NCBI GenBank assembly: GCA_934140575.1
Contig: CAKPBJ010000001.1
Coordinates: forward strand, 68,905 to 132,904
Length of the DNA: 64,000 nucleotides
Direction: 5' to 3'
Origin: an uncultured Bacilli bacterium
GTDB lineage: Bacteria; Bacillota_I; Bacilli_A; RF39; UBA660
Made by a program: the position numbers and the translations under genes. Below the pieces are notes generated by a model. It was not told the origin of the DNA. It made no database searches and saw only the letters and a program-made list of their open reading frames with translations. Below are positions 24,965 through 61,529 of this stretch, in pieces (positions within the stretch are counted from its first letter, which is position 1; the number at the start of each line of letters is the position of its first letter).

Positions 24965-25245
24965 TATAAAAAAACACTAGTCCTTATCTCCTACTACATT
25001 ATTAAATATAGTAAGGGACGAAGACTAGTGTTTCCGCGGTACCACCCTTATTATTATAAATCTCTTTATAATCACTTTCGGTTCAATCAAACCTAAGCAT
25101 AAATAACGGTATGCTACCGACTTATTCTACTAAATTTCTTTAAGTACTCAGAAGTGTTCGTTCATATTGTTTCTTTATTAGGTTCCACCAAACCCTAACT
25201 CTCTATAAAAGAAAATAATATTACTTTTCTTCTTCAGCGATTTCT
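24965..25245 (-). promoter_or_regulatory. T-box riboswitch leader (probable Asn specifier) with intrinsic terminator, controlling gatCAB-aspS
   Basis: minus-strand T-box sequence TAAGGGTGGTACCGCG (revcomp of 25035-25050); terminator ACACTAGTC...GACTAGTGTTTTTTT at 24973-25030; candidate specifier GAACGAACA (AAC) in stem I region. Confidence 0.7.
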
Positions 25246-25258
25246 AATTAAGAATACA

Positions 25259-36095: not shown

Positions 36096-36305
36096 CCGAC
36101 ATTTTTAGTAAAAATAAAAGAAAAATCTATAATTATTGGATGTTTTTTGCCTTTTTTTAGGGTTTTTATAAGAAGAATAGATATAGGTTTCTTAAAAAAT
36201 TACCAAAATACAATCCCAAACTAAATATAAATTTAATTATATATGGAAGAGTTATAACTATTATTACAAAAATCAATATATTGATTATTATCTTTTTTAA
36301 ATTTA

Positions 36306-36473
36306 TTTTAATGGACAAACATTTCCTTCTGCGATACGTCTTATTCCTGAACCAAAGCTATATCCAGCTGCTTTTAATTCTTTAATTACATTAACAAGTG
36401 CATTTATTATTGTACCAGATATACTTGTTCCTCCTTTTATATTTTCTAATTCTTGTTCTGAGATTGGTTTCAT
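36306..36473 (-). CDS. double-glycine-leader bacteriocin-like prepeptide (56 aa), not in ORF track
   Basis: hand translation: MKPISEQEIRKIKGG|TSISGTIINALVNVIKELKAAGYSFGSGIRRIAEGNVCPLK; GG leader, located directly downstream of C39-ABC transporter gene. Confidence 0.5.
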
Positions 36474-36507
36474 TTTATTTACACCTCCTATTTTAATTGC
36501 AACGACT

Positions 36508-36612
36508 AGGATTTGTTATGCCTTCAAATACTCCACTTATGAATACTACTAAAGCAGATATTCCTAAGGCAATCCAAAGAGTCATTCCTTCTCCACCCTT
36601 TAATTTATTCAT
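36508..36612 (-). CDS. second GG-motif small hydrophobic peptide (possible two-peptide partner); start uncertain (ATG 36612, or upstream GTG 36645 / ATA 36630 giving longer leader)
   Basis: hand translation: (V/M)IKIERLTDNE-MNKLKGG|EGMTLWIALGISALVVFISGVFEGITNS; core is a single hydrophobic helix. Confidence 0.35.
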
Positions 36613-36637
36613 TTCATTATCAGTAAGCCTTTCTATT

Positions 36638-37048
36638 TTAATCACCTTCTAATATAACTTTAAATATTTCTATTAATTTTATTTTTCTTTCTCTTATTGT
36701 TAGATTAACAGTATCATTTGTTTTATAACTTTTTACTAAGTCTACTTTTATTAATATTTCTTTATATTTCTTTTTTCCATTAGTGACTACTACGTTATTG
36801 TCTTCTATAATTTTAAAAGTATTTTCTTTATCATTAACATACAATTTCATATTTTTATGTAGCAATTCTTTTTCTTTATCATCTAGTACTAATAAACAAA
36901 TATTTTTATTCATTACTATACATGTAAGAGTTTTATTTTTATAGACTTTGTAATTTGTCATTAATAATATAAATATTAGTTGGATAATAATTAATAAAAC
37001 TGTTATTATTTTTATTTTTGTTAAATCTTCATACTTTTTTTGTATCAT
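36638..37048 (-). CDS. small single-TM protein between transporter and peptides: putative bacteriocin accessory or immunity protein
   Basis: 136 aa, N-terminal TM helix; position equivalent to HlyD-like accessory/immunity genes but far shorter than HlyD-family proteins. Confidence 0.3.
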   Translation of the reverse strand: MIQKKYEDLTKIKIITVLLIIIQLIFILLMTNYKVYKNKTLTCIVMNKNICLLVLDDKEKELLHKNMKLYVNDKENTFKIIEDNNVVVTNGKKKYKEILIKVDLVKSYKTNDTVNLTIRERKIKLIEIFKVILEGD

Positions 37049-39119
37049 ATATTTTTCTTTCTTCTAGTTTTAAAACTCTATCAAATAGTTTCTTGTTATT
37101 AGATCTATGTGAGATTACAATTATTGTTTTTTCTTTTAATTTTGAAAAAATAGATTGAAGTATTTTCTTTTCTCTTACTATATCTATTTGACCTAGTGCT
37201 TCATCAAAGATATAAATATTTGTTTTTTTAATAAGACTTCTTGCGAGTATTATTCTTTGACGTTCTCCATTACTTAGATTAAAACCATTTTCTTCTAGTC
37301 TTTTATCGAGTCCTAAGGAATCATCTTTTATTATGTCATTTATACTACAAATTTTTACTATATCTTCTAAGTCTTCTTCATTGTACTCTTTATAAAGAGT
37401 TATATTATTTCTTATTGTATCATTAAAAATAAATTCATTACTTGTGACATATGTTATATTTGACCTTATATTTTCTAAGTGATAATGATTGATATCAATA
37501 CCTGATATTTTTATTACTCCATAGTCTGTTTCAATATATTTTAGTAACATTTTCATGAGAGTAGATTTACCACTACCACTTGATCCAGTTAATAGAATCT
37601 TTTCTCCTTGCTTTATTTCTAAATTTAAATTTTCAAATAATACTTTTGAGCCTATTTTATAATTTAAATTTTTAAATATTATATTTCCTGTCAAATTATA
37701 TGAAAGATAGAAATAATTATTTTTAAATTCTTCTTCATCTATCATAAATAATTCTTCTACTCTATCTTTAGATATTTTATAGCTTGGATAATTTTCAATT
37801 AATACTAAACAGTTTGAAAAACTACTAATTAAATAATTAGAAAATGTTTCAAATATTAAAAGATTGGCTAGTGATAACTTGTTTTTTATTACTAAATATG
37901 AGCCTATTGTATAAATTAATAATTGAAGTAAATCATTAATATTATTTTTTATGAAATTATATAATTCTTGAAAGGTACTATATTTATAGATACATTCTAA
38001 TAAATTTTTATATTTAATATTAAATTTATCTATTAGTCTTTTTTCTAGATGACTACCTTTAATTGTATCTACATTACTTACTCCTTCTATCAAGTATGTA
38101 TTTATTATGTCTTCGTGTTTTGATAATTGCTTTATATGTTTCTTTTTTTTAGGAGTTAAAAGTATTGTTAATATAAATAGAATTATATATGTTCCCAGAG
38201 ATATTAATGTTAATTCTGTGTTGTATTTAAACATTATTGATAAAAATATAATTATACAAAATATGTCTGTTAAAGAAGTGGTTATTAAATTAGCGATATA
38301 TGTTCTTGTGGTATTTAGATCTTTAAATCTAGATATAACTTCTCCTGTTGTTCTATTTTTATAGTATAAATATGGAAGTAAAAGTATTTGTTTATATGTA
38401 TTTGTTGTTGTATCGTTATCAAGGATTGTTAACCATTTAGTTACCATTATATTTCTTATTACTAAATTAATATTCTTAAATATTAAAATTGATAGAAGGG
38501 TTATAAATATTATTATGATGTGTTCAGTAATATTTATATTTATTGAATATTCTAAAAAGTATTTGAAGGTATATGAAAAAACAATGTTTTCGATAAAGTA
38601 TATAGTGGTAAGTAAAATTATAAATATATAAGTTGATTTATTTCTTTTTAAGTTTAATTTTATATTTTTAGTTAGAATATTCTTTTTATGCATGATTGGT
38701 AATTTTTTAATAGGTTTTAAGAATAAATAATTATTACTTGTTAATAGATTAAATTCTGAGAACTTAATAGTTACTTTTCCTTTTGCTGGGTCCATTATTG
38801 TGACTTTTTTCTTTTTATGATTTACTTCATATAATACAACAAAATGTTTATAGTTTTTATTTACTATGAAATGAACAATGCATGGTAAGTTATTTACATT
38901 TATATTTTCTAGTTTTCCTGTCATTCCAGTAGATTCAAAACCTATTATATTTGATGCATTTGATAAATCATATAAAGATACGCCATCTTTTGTTGTATTT
39001 GTTATTTCTCTTAAGTATTCTTTAGATACATCTCCACCATAAAATCTAATAATAGATAAAAGACAACAAATACCACAATCTTTAATGCCATCTTGATTTA
39101 CAACTTTTAGTTTATTAAT
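37029..39119 (-). CDS. peptidase C39-domain bacteriocin-processing/export ABC transporter (LagD/ComA type); apparent ATT start
   Basis: ORF track starts at internal Met; in-frame upstream region encodes C39 motif QDGIKDCGICCLLSIIRFYGG and His (KHFVV); Walker A GSSGSGKST, signature LSNGERQR, Walker B IYIFDEA; no ATG/GTG/TTG between upstream terminator and C39 motif, AGGAGGTGAAAGT-ATT. Confidence 0.8.
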   Translation of the reverse strand: MNKLKVVNQDGIKDCGICCLLSIIRFYGGDVSKEYLREITNTTKDGVSLYDLSNASNIIGFESTGMTGKLENINVNNLPCIVHFIVNKNYKHFVVLYEVNHKKKKVTIMDPAKGKVTIKFSEFNLLTSNNYLFLKPIKKLPIMHKKNILTKNIKLNLKRNKSTYIFIILLTTIYFIENIVFSYTFKYFLEYSININITEHIIIIFITLLSILIFKNINLVIRNIMVTKWLTILDNDTTTNTYKQILLLPYLYYKNRTTGEVISRFKDLNTTRTYIANLITTSLTDIFCIIIFLSIMFKYNTELTLISLGTYIILFILTILLTPKKKKHIKQLSKHEDIINTYLIEGVSNVDTIKGSHLEKRLIDKFNIKYKNLLECIYKYSTFQELYNFIKNNINDLLQLLIYTIGSYLVIKNKLSLANLLIFETFSNYLISSFSNCLVLIENYPSYKISKDRVEELFMIDEEEFKNNYFYLSYNLTGNIIFKNLNYKIGSKVLFENLNLEIKQGEKILLTGSSGSGKSTLMKMLLKYIETDYGVIKISGIDINHYHLENIRSNITYVTSNEFIFNDTIRNNITLYKEYNEEDLEDIVKICSINDIIKDDSLGLDKRLEENGFNLSNGERQRIILARSLIKKTNIYIFDEALGQIDIVREKKILQSIFSKLKEKTIIVISHRSNNKKLFDRVLKLEERKIYDTKKV

Positions 39120-39159
39120 ACTTTCACCTCCTATTATATTATTAGGAAGTTTTTTTATT

Positions 39160-39200
39160 TTTCGAAAAAAAAAGAAGAAATATTTTCTTCTTATGTGGAT
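39160..39200 (-). terminator. strong hairpin plus T9 immediately upstream of the ABC-transporter RBS (terminator or attenuator)
   Basis: minus strand AAGAAGAAAATATTTCTTCTT followed by TTTTTTTTT, ~35 nt before AGGAGG. Confidence 0.5.
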
Positions 39201-39564
39201 AAATAAATCTTTGTCAATACGCGTGATAAAAAGATAAAGATTTATTGTGCAAGATTACTTCTTACTTATCCGTATTTAATATTATCATAGTTGAGTGAAT
39301 TTTACAAATAAAATGTATAATTATTTGTCGAAATATGTAACAATAGACAAATTAAAATTTGTTACTTTGGTCGTCACCAGTCAAAATTTTACTTTGTGTT
39401 TGCTTTTAGAACTATTTGGATGCAACCTAAACTTATAAGCTTTATACATGTACTACGTCTTCAATATCTTGACTTACTATAACTGACTACAAATAAGTGT
39501 TTGTTAATATAAAATAGCAATTATAATTTTAGTTACTTTTTTAAAGTAAATTCCTTATAAATAG

Positions 39565-39602: not shown

Positions 39603-41006
39603 TTAATTAAATCTTTTTTTCATTGCATATCCAATACCAGCAGCACTTACTAACATTGTTCCAATTACTGCATAAATATTGATATCTGAAGTATTAGGAT
39701 TTGTTACCTTTTCTTCTGTACGCTTTTGAACTAATTTCATGTATACAGTTGTATCTTCTTTTATTGGATTTGTGAAATCAAAGGCTTTTGTATATTCCTC
39801 ATCTAAATAGAATCCATCAAAAGTATATCCTGTTCCTTCTAATTCTTTCATTAATTCATTTTTTAATTCTTCGATTTCTTCGGCTGTTAATTTTGTTCCT
39901 TCTGGAATTTCAACACTTTCTGTTTCACCATTAGCACTGAATGTTAATGTTACAGGTTTTGCTACTGTATATGTTCCGTCTTCATTATCGAATACTTTGT
40001 ATCCATTTGGTACCATATCTTCGCTTGGCTCTGTAGTATAAGTTCCACCTTGAGTTTTTACTGTTGTACCTGTTGTAGCAGTAATTTCTCCATTGATTTC
40101 TCCTTCTGCTACTTCAAGTTTTCCACCATTTTGAACAATTATATCCCCAGAAATTTTTCCACCTTTGATAGTAACTTCTGGAGCATGTCCATTATAGCTA
40201 CCATCTCTTGCTATTTTAACGAAACCATTCATTGTTCCATTTTCGATAGTTGTTGTTGATTGATATCTGTCATCCCATGAATATGCTGTTATTGATGCTG
40301 CTCCATCTACTGCATTTAGTTCTCCACCTTTAAGTGAAAAATCACCCCAGTTTTGAACTGCACTTCCTCCTGCTTTTTTAGTAGATACTTTTCCTCCAGA
40401 AATTACTAACTTACCATTATCATCATTTTTTAATACGATAAAGTCATTTTCAAAAGTTCCTGCTTCTACATATAATTTTGCTTCAATGTTTCTGATTAAT
40501 GAACTAAATCCTGATGTATTAACAACACTTCCACCTTTAAATATTAATTCTGCTTTTGTACCATTGTTGTCGATAACATACCATGAGTTTCCTCCATTGC
40601 TACCACGAACTCCTGCTTCTTTTGAACGTGTAAAAGTTCCTGATAAAACAGTTACTTTTCCGTTGTTTACTAAAGCACCTTTTCCGTGAGTAACGTTATC
40701 AACTTTACCATTACCTTTAACAGTTAATGTACCTTTATTGGTAATGGTATTTCCTGATTTGTTTGTTAATGTGTAAGTTCCCAAATCAAGAGTAATATCT
40801 TTGCCTTCAGCTACTGTGATATCTTCTTTTGTATCAGATGTTAATGTAACTGTCTCACCAGTTTTTGCCGCATTGATTGCCTCTTGTAGTGTAGAATACT
40901 CAACATTTCCTATTTTTGCAACGTTACTATTTTCTGCATATGCATTTGGAACAATTAATGCACTAGCAATTATAGTCATTGCAAAGAATAATATTTTTTT
41001 TCGCAT
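39603..41006 (-). CDS. secreted Gly/Thr-rich beta-repeat surface protein with C-terminal NPNTS sorting signal (putative sortase B substrate)
   Basis: signal peptide, repetitive G/T/N-rich body, C-terminus NPNTSD + hydrophobic stretch + KKRFN; adjacent divergent class B sortase. Confidence 0.55.
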   Translation of the reverse strand: MRKKILFFAMTIIASALIVPNAYAENSNVAKIGNVEYSTLQEAINAAKTGETVTLTSDTKEDITVAEGKDITLDLGTYTLTNKSGNTITNKGTLTVKGNGKVDNVTHGKGALVNNGKVTVLSGTFTRSKEAGVRGSNGGNSWYVIDNNGTKAELIFKGGSVVNTSGFSSLIRNIEAKLYVEAGTFENDFIVLKNDDNGKLVISGGKVSTKKAGGSAVQNWGDFSLKGGELNAVDGAASITAYSWDDRYQSTTTIENGTMNGFVKIARDGSYNGHAPEVTIKGGKISGDIIVQNGGKLEVAEGEINGEITATTGTTVKTQGGTYTTEPSEDMVPNGYKVFDNEDGTYTVAKPVTLTFSANGETESVEIPEGTKLTAEEIEELKNELMKELEGTGYTFDGFYLDEEYTKAFDFTNPIKEDTTVYMKLVQKRTEEKVTNPNTSDINIYAVIGTMLVSAAGIGYAMKKRFN

Positions 41007-41207
41007 ATTCTCCTCTCCTTTTTTAAGAGCATGCCTACTCTTATGCCCTAATTATATATCCGAAGTTATAGGTTGTCAATCAAATTCAAATGGGACTTTT
41101 TTATTATATGTAAAGCAAAAAATATGAAGAATTTTGTACAATGAAAAAGCTTTATAGCTACTATTATTAATGGTATAATTTACTTAAGAGCTAAGGAGAT
41201 TAGAAGT

Positions 41208-42068
41208 ATGAAGAAAAAGAAGATGACAAGAGTTGAATATCAGAAAAGACTCAGAAGGAAAAGAATGAGATTAAAACCAGTTCCTTTTGCTATATTAATT
41301 TTGATTTGTTCTTCAATATTTATTTTTTCTTTATACTCACTTGTCACATGGCAACTTGATAATAATAAAATTAAGAATCTTCATAGTGAGATAGATGATA
41401 TTTCTAATGGAGAGTTTATTAAAGATAAAGGCGATGCTTTTAATCCGCCTGATGATAAAGATAGTGATTATTGGTATTACATTGATCTTCCTTTTTATAA
41501 TGTTGATTTTGATGAGCTATTAAAGAAGAATAAAGATACTGTTGCTTTTATTCATATGGAAAATAATAATATTAATTATCCTGTTGTTCAATCTAAAGAT
41601 AATAATTATTATTTAACTCATGCATTTGATAAAAGTTATAATGAAGCAGGATGGGTATTTTTAGATTATAGAAATAATATTAATTCATTATCTTTTAATA
41701 ATATTATATATGGACATGGTAGATTAAATAAAACTGTATTTGGTTCTCTTAAAGATACTCTTGATAAGAAATGGCAAAGTAATAAAGATAATTTAGCTAT
41801 TTATATTTCTACTCCTAATGAGAATATGATATTTCAAATATTTTCTATTTATACTATTAAAAGTGAGTCTTATTATATTAATACTTTATTTAATAATAAA
41901 AATGAAAAAAGTAAATGGTTAGATACTATGATTCAGAGAAATACTTCTGCTATTAATACTTCTGTTGATACAAATGATAAAATTCTTACATTGTCTACTT
42001 GTCTTGATGACAATGGTGGACGTGTTGTCGTACAAGCAAAGTTAATAAAAACTCAAAAAAGACTGTAG
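41208..42068 (+). CDS. srtB: class B sortase
   Basis: N-terminal TM anchor, His (IYGHG), TLSTC catalytic Cys motif, downstream Arg; 286 aa. Confidence 0.75.
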   Translation: MKKKKMTRVEYQKRLRRKRMRLKPVPFAILILICSSIFIFSLYSLVTWQLDNNKIKNLHSEIDDISNGEFIKDKGDAFNPPDDKDSDYWYYIDLPFYNVDFDELLKKNKDTVAFIHMENNNINYPVVQSKDNNYYLTHAFDKSYNEAGWVFLDYRNNINSLSFNNIIYGHGRLNKTVFGSLKDTLDKKWQSNKDNLAIYISTPNENMIFQIFSIYTIKSESYYINTLFNNKNEKSKWLDTMIQRNTSAINTSVDTNDKILTLSTCLDDNGGRVVVQAKLIKTQKRL

Positions 42069-43093: not shown

Positions 43094-43145
43094 TTAATTA
43101 TAAAAATAAAAAACGTTGATTTCTCAACGTGTATTTCTTAATGGT
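43094..43145. repeat. direct repeat copy B (native tRNA-Ala 3' end plus terminator)
   Basis: see copy A; contains terminator hairpin ACGTTGATTTCTCAACGT (43103-43120). Confidence 0.8.
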
Positions 43146-43207
43146 GGAGCATAGCGGGATCGAACCGCTGACCTCCACGGTGCAAACGTGGCGCTCTCCC
43201 AGCTGAG
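43132..43207 (-). tRNA. tRNA-Ala (anticodon UGC), CCA encoded
   Basis: minus strand GGGGCATTAGCTCAGCTGGGAGAGCGCCACGTTTGCACCGTGGAGGTCAGCGGTTCGATCCCGCTATGCTCCACCA; G3:U70, cloverleaf with TGC anticodon. Confidence 0.9.
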
Positions 43208-43225
43208 CTAATGCCCCATTAATTA

Positions 43226-61282: not shown

Positions 61283-61500
61283 CCTCCTTTCTAAAAACTA
61301 AAAAACTATTCATCCAAAGGACGAATAGTTCGTGGTACCACCTTAATTTATACTTAAAGTATCTTAATATTTATAACGGAATTATCCGGAATTATTTACT
61401 TTGTTTCAATAATTATGTTCCTCTGCTACCTTCAATATCCTTGTTTATTCATTTACACCTACCATGAACTCTCTAGAAAACAGTAAATATTTACTCCTCA
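61283..61500 (-). promoter_or_regulatory. T-box riboswitch leader (probable Val specifier GUA) with terminator, upstream of HAD-hyp-valS operon
   Basis: minus-strand AAATTAAGGTGGTACCACGAAC T-box sequence; terminator AACTATTCGTCC..GGATGAATAGTTTTTT; AGAGAG and GAAGGTAGC in stem I region. Confidence 0.65.
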
Positions 61501-61529
61501 GATTCATCACATCTGGTTTTGATTATATA

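Follow-up and report, generated by a model that had tools for sequence, protein, structure and literature searches.

An rpsU-linked export operon for two double-glycine peptides of class IIb-like architecture in uncultured Bacilli

Class IIb (two-peptide) bacteriocins are defined by adjacent peptide genes in one operon, double-glycine (GG) leaders of 15-30 residues, and an ATP-binding cassette (ABC) transporter with an accessory protein; a GxxxG motif has been reported in all characterised members, with AxxxA and SxxxS as alternatives (PMC2850506). Large catalogues of class II bacteriocin candidates from the gut already exist (PMC12648112). The locus described here lies on the minus strand of a 64-kb stretch of DNA from an uncultured Bacilli bacterium (assembly GCA_934140575.1, contig CAKPBJ010000001.1, positions 68,905 to 132,904; hereafter the window). 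It carries a peptidase-containing ABC transporter (PCAT), an open reading frame (ORF) of 136 amino acids (aa), the genes of two short GG-leader peptides, pepA and pepB, and a fifth small ORF:

37029 to 39119, minus strand: PCAT exporter, composed of a C39 peptidase domain, a six-transmembrane (TM) ABC_membrane domain and a nucleotide-binding domain (NBD), as assigned by Pfam, NCBIfam and structure alignment.
36638 to 37048, minus strand: 136-aa accessory protein, modelled with an N-terminal TM helix, a beta-barrel of about 90 residues and a C-terminal helix.
36493 to 36645, minus strand: pepA, 50 aa, leader MIKIERLTDNEMNKLKGG and core EGMTLWIALGISALVVFISGVFEGITNPSRCN; GTG start codon within the stop region of the accessory gene.
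36303 to 36473, minus strand: pepB, 56 aa, leader MKPISEQELENIKGG and core TSISGTIINALVNVIKELKAAGYSFGSGIRRIAEGNVCPLK.
36166 to 36318, minus strand: orf5, a hydrophobic peptide of 50 aa with a TTG start codon, overlapping the last 16 nucleotides (nt) of pepB.

On the evidence set out below, it is very likely that the locus encodes a machinery for peptide export and processing together with two cargo peptides that co-evolve with it. With moderate confidence, we read the locus as a vertically inherited operon for a two-peptide unit that is built like a class IIb bacteriocin and would serve as a narrow-spectrum toxin.

The preliminary description of this DNA had reported two unlisted GG-leader ORFs of less than 60 aa, and both are confirmed as adjacent genes. 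A regular expression for GG leaders, applied to all ORFs of 30-90 aa on both strands of the window, matched pepA and pepB and no other ORF. There were no matches in 30 windows simulated with a first-order Markov model, and this count, together with the conserved orthologues, rules out that the two are chance ORFs. The earlier hand translations had the GG architecture right and a few residues wrong (the pepB leader ends in ...QELENIKGG, not ...QEIRKIKGG), and the 3' end of pepA was misplaced at 36508; the peptide ends in ...GITNPSRCN, hence at 36493/36496.

PepA consists of an 18-residue GG leader and a 32-residue hydrophobic core, while pepB has a 15-residue GG leader, a 41-residue core with an amphipathic helix, and its own Shine-Dalgarno (SD) sequence (AGGAGGTG) 9 nt upstream. 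The two genes are 19 nt apart on the same strand, and their order is kept in every locus that extends through both. For comparison, 37 related loci (given L numbers where they are singled out below) were collected by exact-protein look-up, from species-representative genomes (with 'Bacillales bacterium UBA3789' and 'uncultured Bacillales bacterium' among the titles) and from metagenomes, the latter scanned with a 14-sequence alignment as query; the peptide alignments comprise about 20 distinct orthologues each. Invariant in pepA are the GG, F35, G38xxxG42 (SGVFEG) and N45-P46-x-x-C49, and in pepB L9, the GG, A25, A36-G37-x-x-x-G41-S-G-x-R-R, E49 and C53-P54, the last pair standing three residues from the end in a C-terminus of the form CP[L/M]x. 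Across about 20 species the leaders follow the consensus L(-12) E(-8) L/M(-7) I/L(-4) G G, in which the GG is invariant and positions -4, -7 and -12 are hydrophobic. Adjacent peptide genes, leaders of 18 and 15 residues and an invariant GxxxG in both peptides are all class IIb features. Each peptide also has one invariant Cys near the C-terminus, and this pair may form an inter-peptide disulfide.

The earlier remark that the peptides have no obvious family assignment holds: pepA is below threshold for class IIb models, and the matches of pepB are confined to models of the leader type. Among the pepA orthologues, 17 of 19 match NF038034 (lactococcin G-beta/enterocin 1071B), the best at 30 bits against a cutoff of 37, and 10 of 19 match TIGR03949 (lactobin A/cerein 7B class IIb), for which only the L015 copy passes (29.2 vs. 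21.5). A set of 5.8 billion proteins contains 15 homologues of pepB (64-96% identity) and two of pepA, all of them metagenomic; one peptide homologue is annotated only as 'hypothetical protein, Bacilli bacterium'. No relatives of either peptide were found among solved structures (best E 0.19, an unrelated protein), and an AlphaFold 2 (AF2) model of pepB shows three helices at low confidence (predicted local distance difference test, pLDDT, 58), giving helix positions only. A tblastn search of 72,556 plasmids with pepB and the 136-aa protein found nothing. We also considered whether pepA might be a type IV prepilin-like protein and rejected this: it has no Glu at +5, the GG with the -4/-7/-12 pattern is that of a C39 substrate, and no prepilin peptidase gene adjoins the cassette.

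Within the species, purifying selection acts on all genes of the operon: the ratio of non-synonymous to synonymous polymorphism (pN/pS) is 0.05-0.17 (0.11 for pepA at strain level). The peptide cores are unchanged within species and the leaders vary. The pepB core shows 100% identity across 11 of the other 12 loci from the species; the remaining copy (L007) is broken by masked bases.

The exporter had been claimed as a C39-peptidase ABC transporter, and its catalytic site is indeed intact. When the frame is read upstream of its first Met, a Pfam search gives Peptidase_C39 (PF03412; E 5.9e-30, covering positions 2-130 of the 133 in the profile), followed by ABC_membrane (PF00664, E 5.9e-32) and ABC_tran (PF00005, E 4.1e-27). 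The nearest solved structures are PCAT1 (4RY2, E 3.4e-81) and ComA (8HF7, E 1e-73). Aligned with Q/C21/H99/D115 of PCAT1 are the oxyanion Gln, the Cys (QDGIKDCG), the His (KHFVV) and the Asp (MDP) of the peptidase, and the same alignment shows the Walker A and B motifs, the signature and the H-loop of the NBD (GSSGSGKST, LSNGERQR, IYIFDEA, SHR). Because its scores lie below the trusted cutoffs of the curated PCAT subfamilies (TIGR01193 332.9 vs. 523.85, TIGR03796 319.4 vs. 853.3, NF045998 318.1 vs. 500), the exporter is, by sequence, a divergent PCAT lineage.

From these features we infer the following course of events. Transcription would start about 150 nt upstream of the exporter and run through a structured leader, at the end of which a terminator probably controls read-through. 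The exporter would be translated from a non-canonical ATT codon, which would keep its expression low, and, by way of overlapping stop and start codons, translation of the accessory gene and of pepA would be coupled to that of the exporter. The C39 domain would cut both precursors after the Gly-Gly, and the ABC core would export them assisted by the accessory protein with its membrane anchor and beta-barrel. Once exported, the two peptides would pack in a membrane through their GxxxG motifs, the helix of pepA being hydrophobic and that of pepB amphipathic, and the single C-terminal Cys of each peptide may join them in the disulfide proposed above. The most likely role would be that of a narrow-spectrum membrane-active toxin against close relatives; orf5, the accessory protein or both would confer immunity on the producer.

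Several observations weigh against this reading, and they leave the earlier claim of a class II, possibly two-peptide, bacteriocin standing for the class IIb-like architecture and not for charge or genomic setting. The window pepA scores 21.5 bits against the NF038034 cutoff of 37 and does not match TIGR03949 at all; the window pepB reaches 17.3 vs. 27.1 for PF10439 (Bacteriocin_IIc, E 0.0047) and 13.8 vs. 21.5 for TIGR03949. Net core charges range from -2 to 0 for pepA and from -3 to +3 for pepB (mostly -1 to +1), with -1 and +3 in the window, whereas characterised class II bacteriocins are cationic. A Foldseek search of the PDB with the model of the accessory protein gave nothing significant, membrane-fusion proteins appearing at E 0.4-0.8. 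In each of the 37 related loci fetched, the cassette directly precedes rpsU, and its core-like divergence and fixed site differ, as judged from these sequences, from the patchy distribution typical of bacteriocin loci. Finally, orf5 is absent from L014, L016 and L019-L027, where the 80-190 nt between pepB and rpsU hold no ORF.

This last gene bears on the earlier statement that no dedicated immunity gene is visible. A candidate had been overlooked, yet roughly half of the lineages with both peptides do not have it. Class IIb operons by definition also include an immunity gene (PMC2850506). Placed after the peptides, at the position of class IIb immunity genes, orf5 is a candidate immunity or membrane component. 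Its orthologues are 45-54 aa long, start with ATG in most other carrier species, and share the motif LP..I..F.F..G.Y.G.FLRNL in L001, L004, L007, L009-L013, L015 and L017; within the species it is under weaker constraint (pN/pS 0.54). At the corresponding place in L008 (6786-9193, 'Bacillales bacterium UBA3789'), which has no orf5, two tandem paralogous proteins of about 400 aa, each with an N-terminal TM segment, are encoded between pepB and rpsU.

The gene order found by tblastn was the same in 27 of 27 loci: PCAT, the 136-aa protein, pepA, pepB, sometimes the small ORF, and then rpsU-yqeY-yabP-yqfD-vanZ-ybeY-dgkA-cdd-era-recO. Since the cassette's own proteins led to most of the loci, these counts do not establish that it is universal in the clade; the ten loci fetched through the ribosomal protein S21 sequence of the window instead of the cassette all carry it, and all belong to the same or a very close species. 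In the assembly collection, about 2,800 indexed blocks contain this same S21 sequence. Across species, identity to the window is 58-65% for the PCAT, 28-45% for the 136-aa protein (the fastest-evolving component), 48-73% for pepB (59-82% in the core) and 34-60% for pepA, compared with 92-100% for S21, mostly 79-87% for YqeY and YbeY, 45-59% for YqfD and 35-59% for YabP. The GC content of the region is 20-27%, and that of the cassette equals its flanks. A recently acquired island is ruled out by this equality and by the strict synteny. Because of its core-gene-like divergence and the matching GC content, the cassette is best described, on sequence grounds, as vertically inherited and diverging like a moderately conserved core gene.

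A serious, though less probable, rival explanation keeps the same machinery but not the weapon: the peptides could be a conserved, producer-directed heterodimer, for instance a pair inserted in the membrane or displayed on the surface, or a cell-cell signal, with a part, fixed in the clade, in the envelope, in development or sporulation, or in population signalling. The strict rpsU synteny, the core-gene-like divergence and the lack of any compositional anomaly would all suit such a role, as would peptides that are neutral or anionic and that have no consistent immunity gene. The cores remain highly conserved (Cys, GxxxG, GSGxRR) despite divergence of the accessory protein down to 28%, and the pepA core, resembling a single TM helix, would partition into the producer's own membrane. 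A dedicated RNA leader (see below) suggests metabolic or physiological control over quorum control. PCAT cargo is functionally diverse and includes signals, and the GG peptides of the pneumococcal rtg locus are of unresolved function (PMC7018657). Against this, the neighbourhood encodes neither a receptor kinase nor an Rgg/PlcR-type regulator nor any other partner for sensing, and hydrophobic and amphipathic cores of 32-41 residues carrying GxxxG are a typical feature of two-peptide bacteriocins that form pores and not of known pheromones. The apparent fixation is also subject to the ascertainment bias described above, and a fixed chromosomal site is not foreign to bacteriocin loci, the blp locus being an example. 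The toxin reading, which the architecture matches most closely, remains the one we prefer. If the unit is antimicrobial, it would represent a two-peptide bacteriocin family from an abundant uncultured lineage of the human and animal gut, non-cationic and possibly disulfide-joined; if it is not, GG-peptide export would have been recruited for a conserved cellular function.

The preliminary description saw no regulators at the locus. It overlooked a conserved structured RNA with a terminator, which lies directly upstream, between the terminator of the preceding gene and the exporter:

39279 to 39307, minus strand: sigma-A-type promoter, with -35 TTGTAA (39307-39302), a 17-nt spacer and -10 TAATAT (39284-39279).
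39165 to 39271, minus strand: structured RNA of about 107 nt, with helix P1, a variable P2, P3, a terminator hairpin and a U-run.
39125 to 39132, minus strand: exporter SD sequence AGGAGGTG, kept in all species.

Transcription of the leader is predicted to start at G 39271, and similar -35/-10 pairs stand at equal distance from a GGGATAA start in L001, L004, L017, L022 and L024. P1 is formed by GGATAA (39271-39266) and TTATCC (39202-39197), the P3 stem encloses the invariant loop UUAUCACGCGU (ATCACGCG at 39227-39220; core AUCACGCG), and an AT-rich terminator hairpin (39192-39172) is followed by a U-run to 39165, 45 nt before the ATT codon. The window RNA has a minimum free energy of -23.4 kcal/mol (z -4.13), and none of 200 dinucleotide shuffles was as stable. 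Twelve distinct sequences, each folded singly, adopt the same architecture. Because MAFFT put the 5' strand of P1 and the 3' strand of P3 out of register, the helices were aligned by hand and checked by script. Pairing in P1 and in the two parts of P3 is 100% canonical in 11 species, as is the terminator stem in the nine rows checked. Helix sequences vary among species, position 2 of P1, for example, being G-C, A-U or U-A. Each locus that has the element has a single copy, which always precedes the exporter on the same strand; ungapped strain copies are identical to that of the window, and the L007 and L034 copies carry changes. The element is missing from L008, L019 and L025, and P2 is absent in L016. 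No Rfam 15 family (4227 searched) matched between 35700 and 39700 at E<=1.

We regard this RNA as a candidate terminator-type cis-regulatory leader or attenuator, with an independent small RNA as a possible alternative; a search for a separate promoter between the leader terminator and the SD sequence gave only weak matches. A structured RNA that shows clear covariation and belongs to no Rfam family would count as a new regulatory RNA, the first linked to peptide export. A broader proposal, which we consider doubtful, combines it with the physiological role discussed above: the RNA with the AUCACGCG loop would be a new class of riboswitch, or of attenuator responding to a protein or an RNA, that serves a peptide-export operon. 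The cargo, no bacteriocin, would be a clade-fixed, non-cationic heterodimeric membrane peptide linked by a disulfide; it would have a physiological function in these uncultured, sporulating Bacilli of the gut and would leave the cell with the aid of a membrane-fusion protein reduced to one domain.

Two further observations were made in this interval. Directly 5' of the exporter SD sequence, at 39133-39145 on the minus strand, a motif GAATAATA / TAATAATATAAT is kept in all species, even those without the leader RNA; it may be either an A/U-rich translation enhancer or a second promoter's -10 box. In L011 (2575-2924), and in the same region of L013, about 350-400 extra nt separate the leader RNA from the exporter start. 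This segment has a copy of the TCTAATAATAyAATTGGAGG... 5' region on either side and a 9-codon remnant ORF after the first copy, and it looks like an insertion with target duplication.

The 136-aa protein had been described as a single-TM protein following the exporter, as it is. Its gene shares 20 nt with the end of the exporter gene and 8 nt with the beginning of pepA, and adjoins the exporter in every locus whose contig covers the stretch. A phmmer search of 1.84 billion representatives returned 169 clusters at E<=1e-3, and among the best 150 of these the homologues are mostly about 135 aa long; the protein and 73 family members have no Pfam or NCBIfam match, HlyD families included. An alignment-based AF2 model (pLDDT 92) shows a TM helix (4-32), a beta-barrel with one short helix, and a C-terminal helix. 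Because of this modelled fold, the gene position and the overlap with the exporter stop, we read it with moderate confidence as a one-domain 'mini' membrane-fusion accessory protein, in which case this family of single-barrel proteins of about 135 aa may show the minimum that a Gram-positive PCAT needs from a membrane-fusion partner. The conserved C-terminus ...EGD* (36638-36645, minus strand) is encoded by GAAGGTGATTAA, which also holds the GTG start of pepA; its conservation at the protein level may reflect translational coupling.

It has also to be asked whether the 136-aa protein is itself the immunity protein, a membrane-anchored extracellular binder comparable to LanI lipoproteins, with orf5 unrelated to immunity. 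It is present in every locus, even those without orf5; its fast evolution is as expected of a protein tracking cognate peptides; Foldseek lent the membrane-fusion fold no significant support; and accessory proteins may take part in class IIb immunity (PMC2850506). We think this assignment improbable, and continue to treat the protein as a probable mini membrane-fusion accessory.

The start codon of the exporter deserves separate comment. Upstream of Met 38924, where the ORF list began the gene, the frame reads ...GGESINKLKVVNQDGIKDCGICCLLSIIRFYGG... in the window; the catalytic Cys lies in this part, as had been claimed, and the His, which had been placed there too, lies downstream together with the Asp. 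No ATG, GTG or TTG precedes this internal Met in the window species. Orthologous exporters mostly begin GTG-AAA-GTT (MKVV...QDGIKDCG), or with ATG in L011 and L013, and the window species has CTA at the start codon of the orthologues. The only near-cognate codon with good spacing is ATT (39119-39117), 7 nt from the GGAGG, and translation probably starts there, giving a protein of 696 aa. Frame, SD sequence and ATT are identical in 13 same-species sequences (the window and 12 other loci). Among ten strain variants, the 63 codons 5' of the first Met show 30 synonymous and 5 non-synonymous differences (pN/pS 0.047), compared with a pN/pS of 0.095 for the remaining codons, which argues that the peptidase domain is translated and the locus is not decaying. 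Gene callers shorten the exporter to 631 or 645 aa, starting at an internal Met or Leu, and the conserved ATT start is thus a warning that this transporter is systematically truncated in annotation and its catalytic Cys hidden.

Decay of the locus, with the start codon lost, a truncated Cys-less pump made from Met 38924 and the peptides left unprocessed, would account for the missing conventional start and the internal starts of the gene callers and has a parallel in the common start-codon mutations of the pneumococcal PCAT gene rtgA (PMC7018657), but is very improbable given upstream codons at least as constrained as the remaining gene, a start region identical in all 13 sequences and peptide cores invariant within species.

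Further from the operon, the window holds upstream of it (39603-42068) a 467-aa surface protein with a signal peptide, a C-terminal TM segment and a weak Flg_new match, and, on the strand opposite to its gene, a 286-aa ORF (41208-42068) whose TLSTC motif suggests a sortase. The position of the surface-protein gene is taken in L004 and L034 by an M50-peptidase gene beside an M23-peptidase gene, which from this position we take to be spoIVFB-like. Because other species have the M50-peptidase gene there, the surface-protein block appears to be a lineage-specific insertion. The only Rfam matches above the gathering threshold in the whole window are two T-boxes (61314-61516 and 25011-25246, both minus strand; 133 and 130 bits) and a tRNA (43145-43217, minus strand).

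The general kind of system is known, and the undescribed parts are the two peptide families, the mini accessory family and the RNA leader. The lactococcin G (lagA/B) and enterocin 1071 operons likewise combine a peptide pair, a C39-ABC transporter, an accessory protein and a small membrane ORF after the peptides. Here, in contrast, the cores are neutral or anionic with one invariant C-terminal Cys each, neither window peptide passes a curated model, the pepB core is unlike any family, the immunity candidate is missing in half of the clade, and the locus is fixed among core genes.

The exporter shares the full-length architecture of PCAT1 of Hungateiclostridium thermocellum (4RY2) and ComA of Streptococcus pneumoniae (8HF7), with which it aligns over residues 5-689, and differs from both in having no canonical start codon in the window species and in being paired with a miniature accessory protein. 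Accessory proteins of the ComB/LcnD type are about 450 aa long, compared with 136 aa here. Like membrane-fusion proteins (ZneB, BesA, MexA, MacA, Spr0693; ComB/LcnD/HlyD), the accessory protein has an N-terminal membrane anchor and a gene adjoining that of an ABC exporter; unlike them, it consists of the barrel only, the lipoyl, alpha-hairpin and membrane-proximal domains being absent.

The leader RNA resembles terminator-type riboswitches and attenuators of Bacillota in its promoter-proximal junction, covarying stems and invariant loop, followed by an intrinsic terminator, with the SD sequence about 45 nt further on; it differs in standing outside the Rfam families, in its dispensable P2, and in being absent from some species. 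Pneumococcal rtg (RtgAB) provides a parallel for a PCAT with an accessory protein, co-encoded GG peptides and start-codon variants of the PCAT (PMC7018657). That locus, however, varies between strains, being intact in 17% of them, and is under the control of an Rgg/SHP system (PMC7018657), whereas the cassette described here is present in every locus fetched and has a structured RNA leader in place of a protein regulator.

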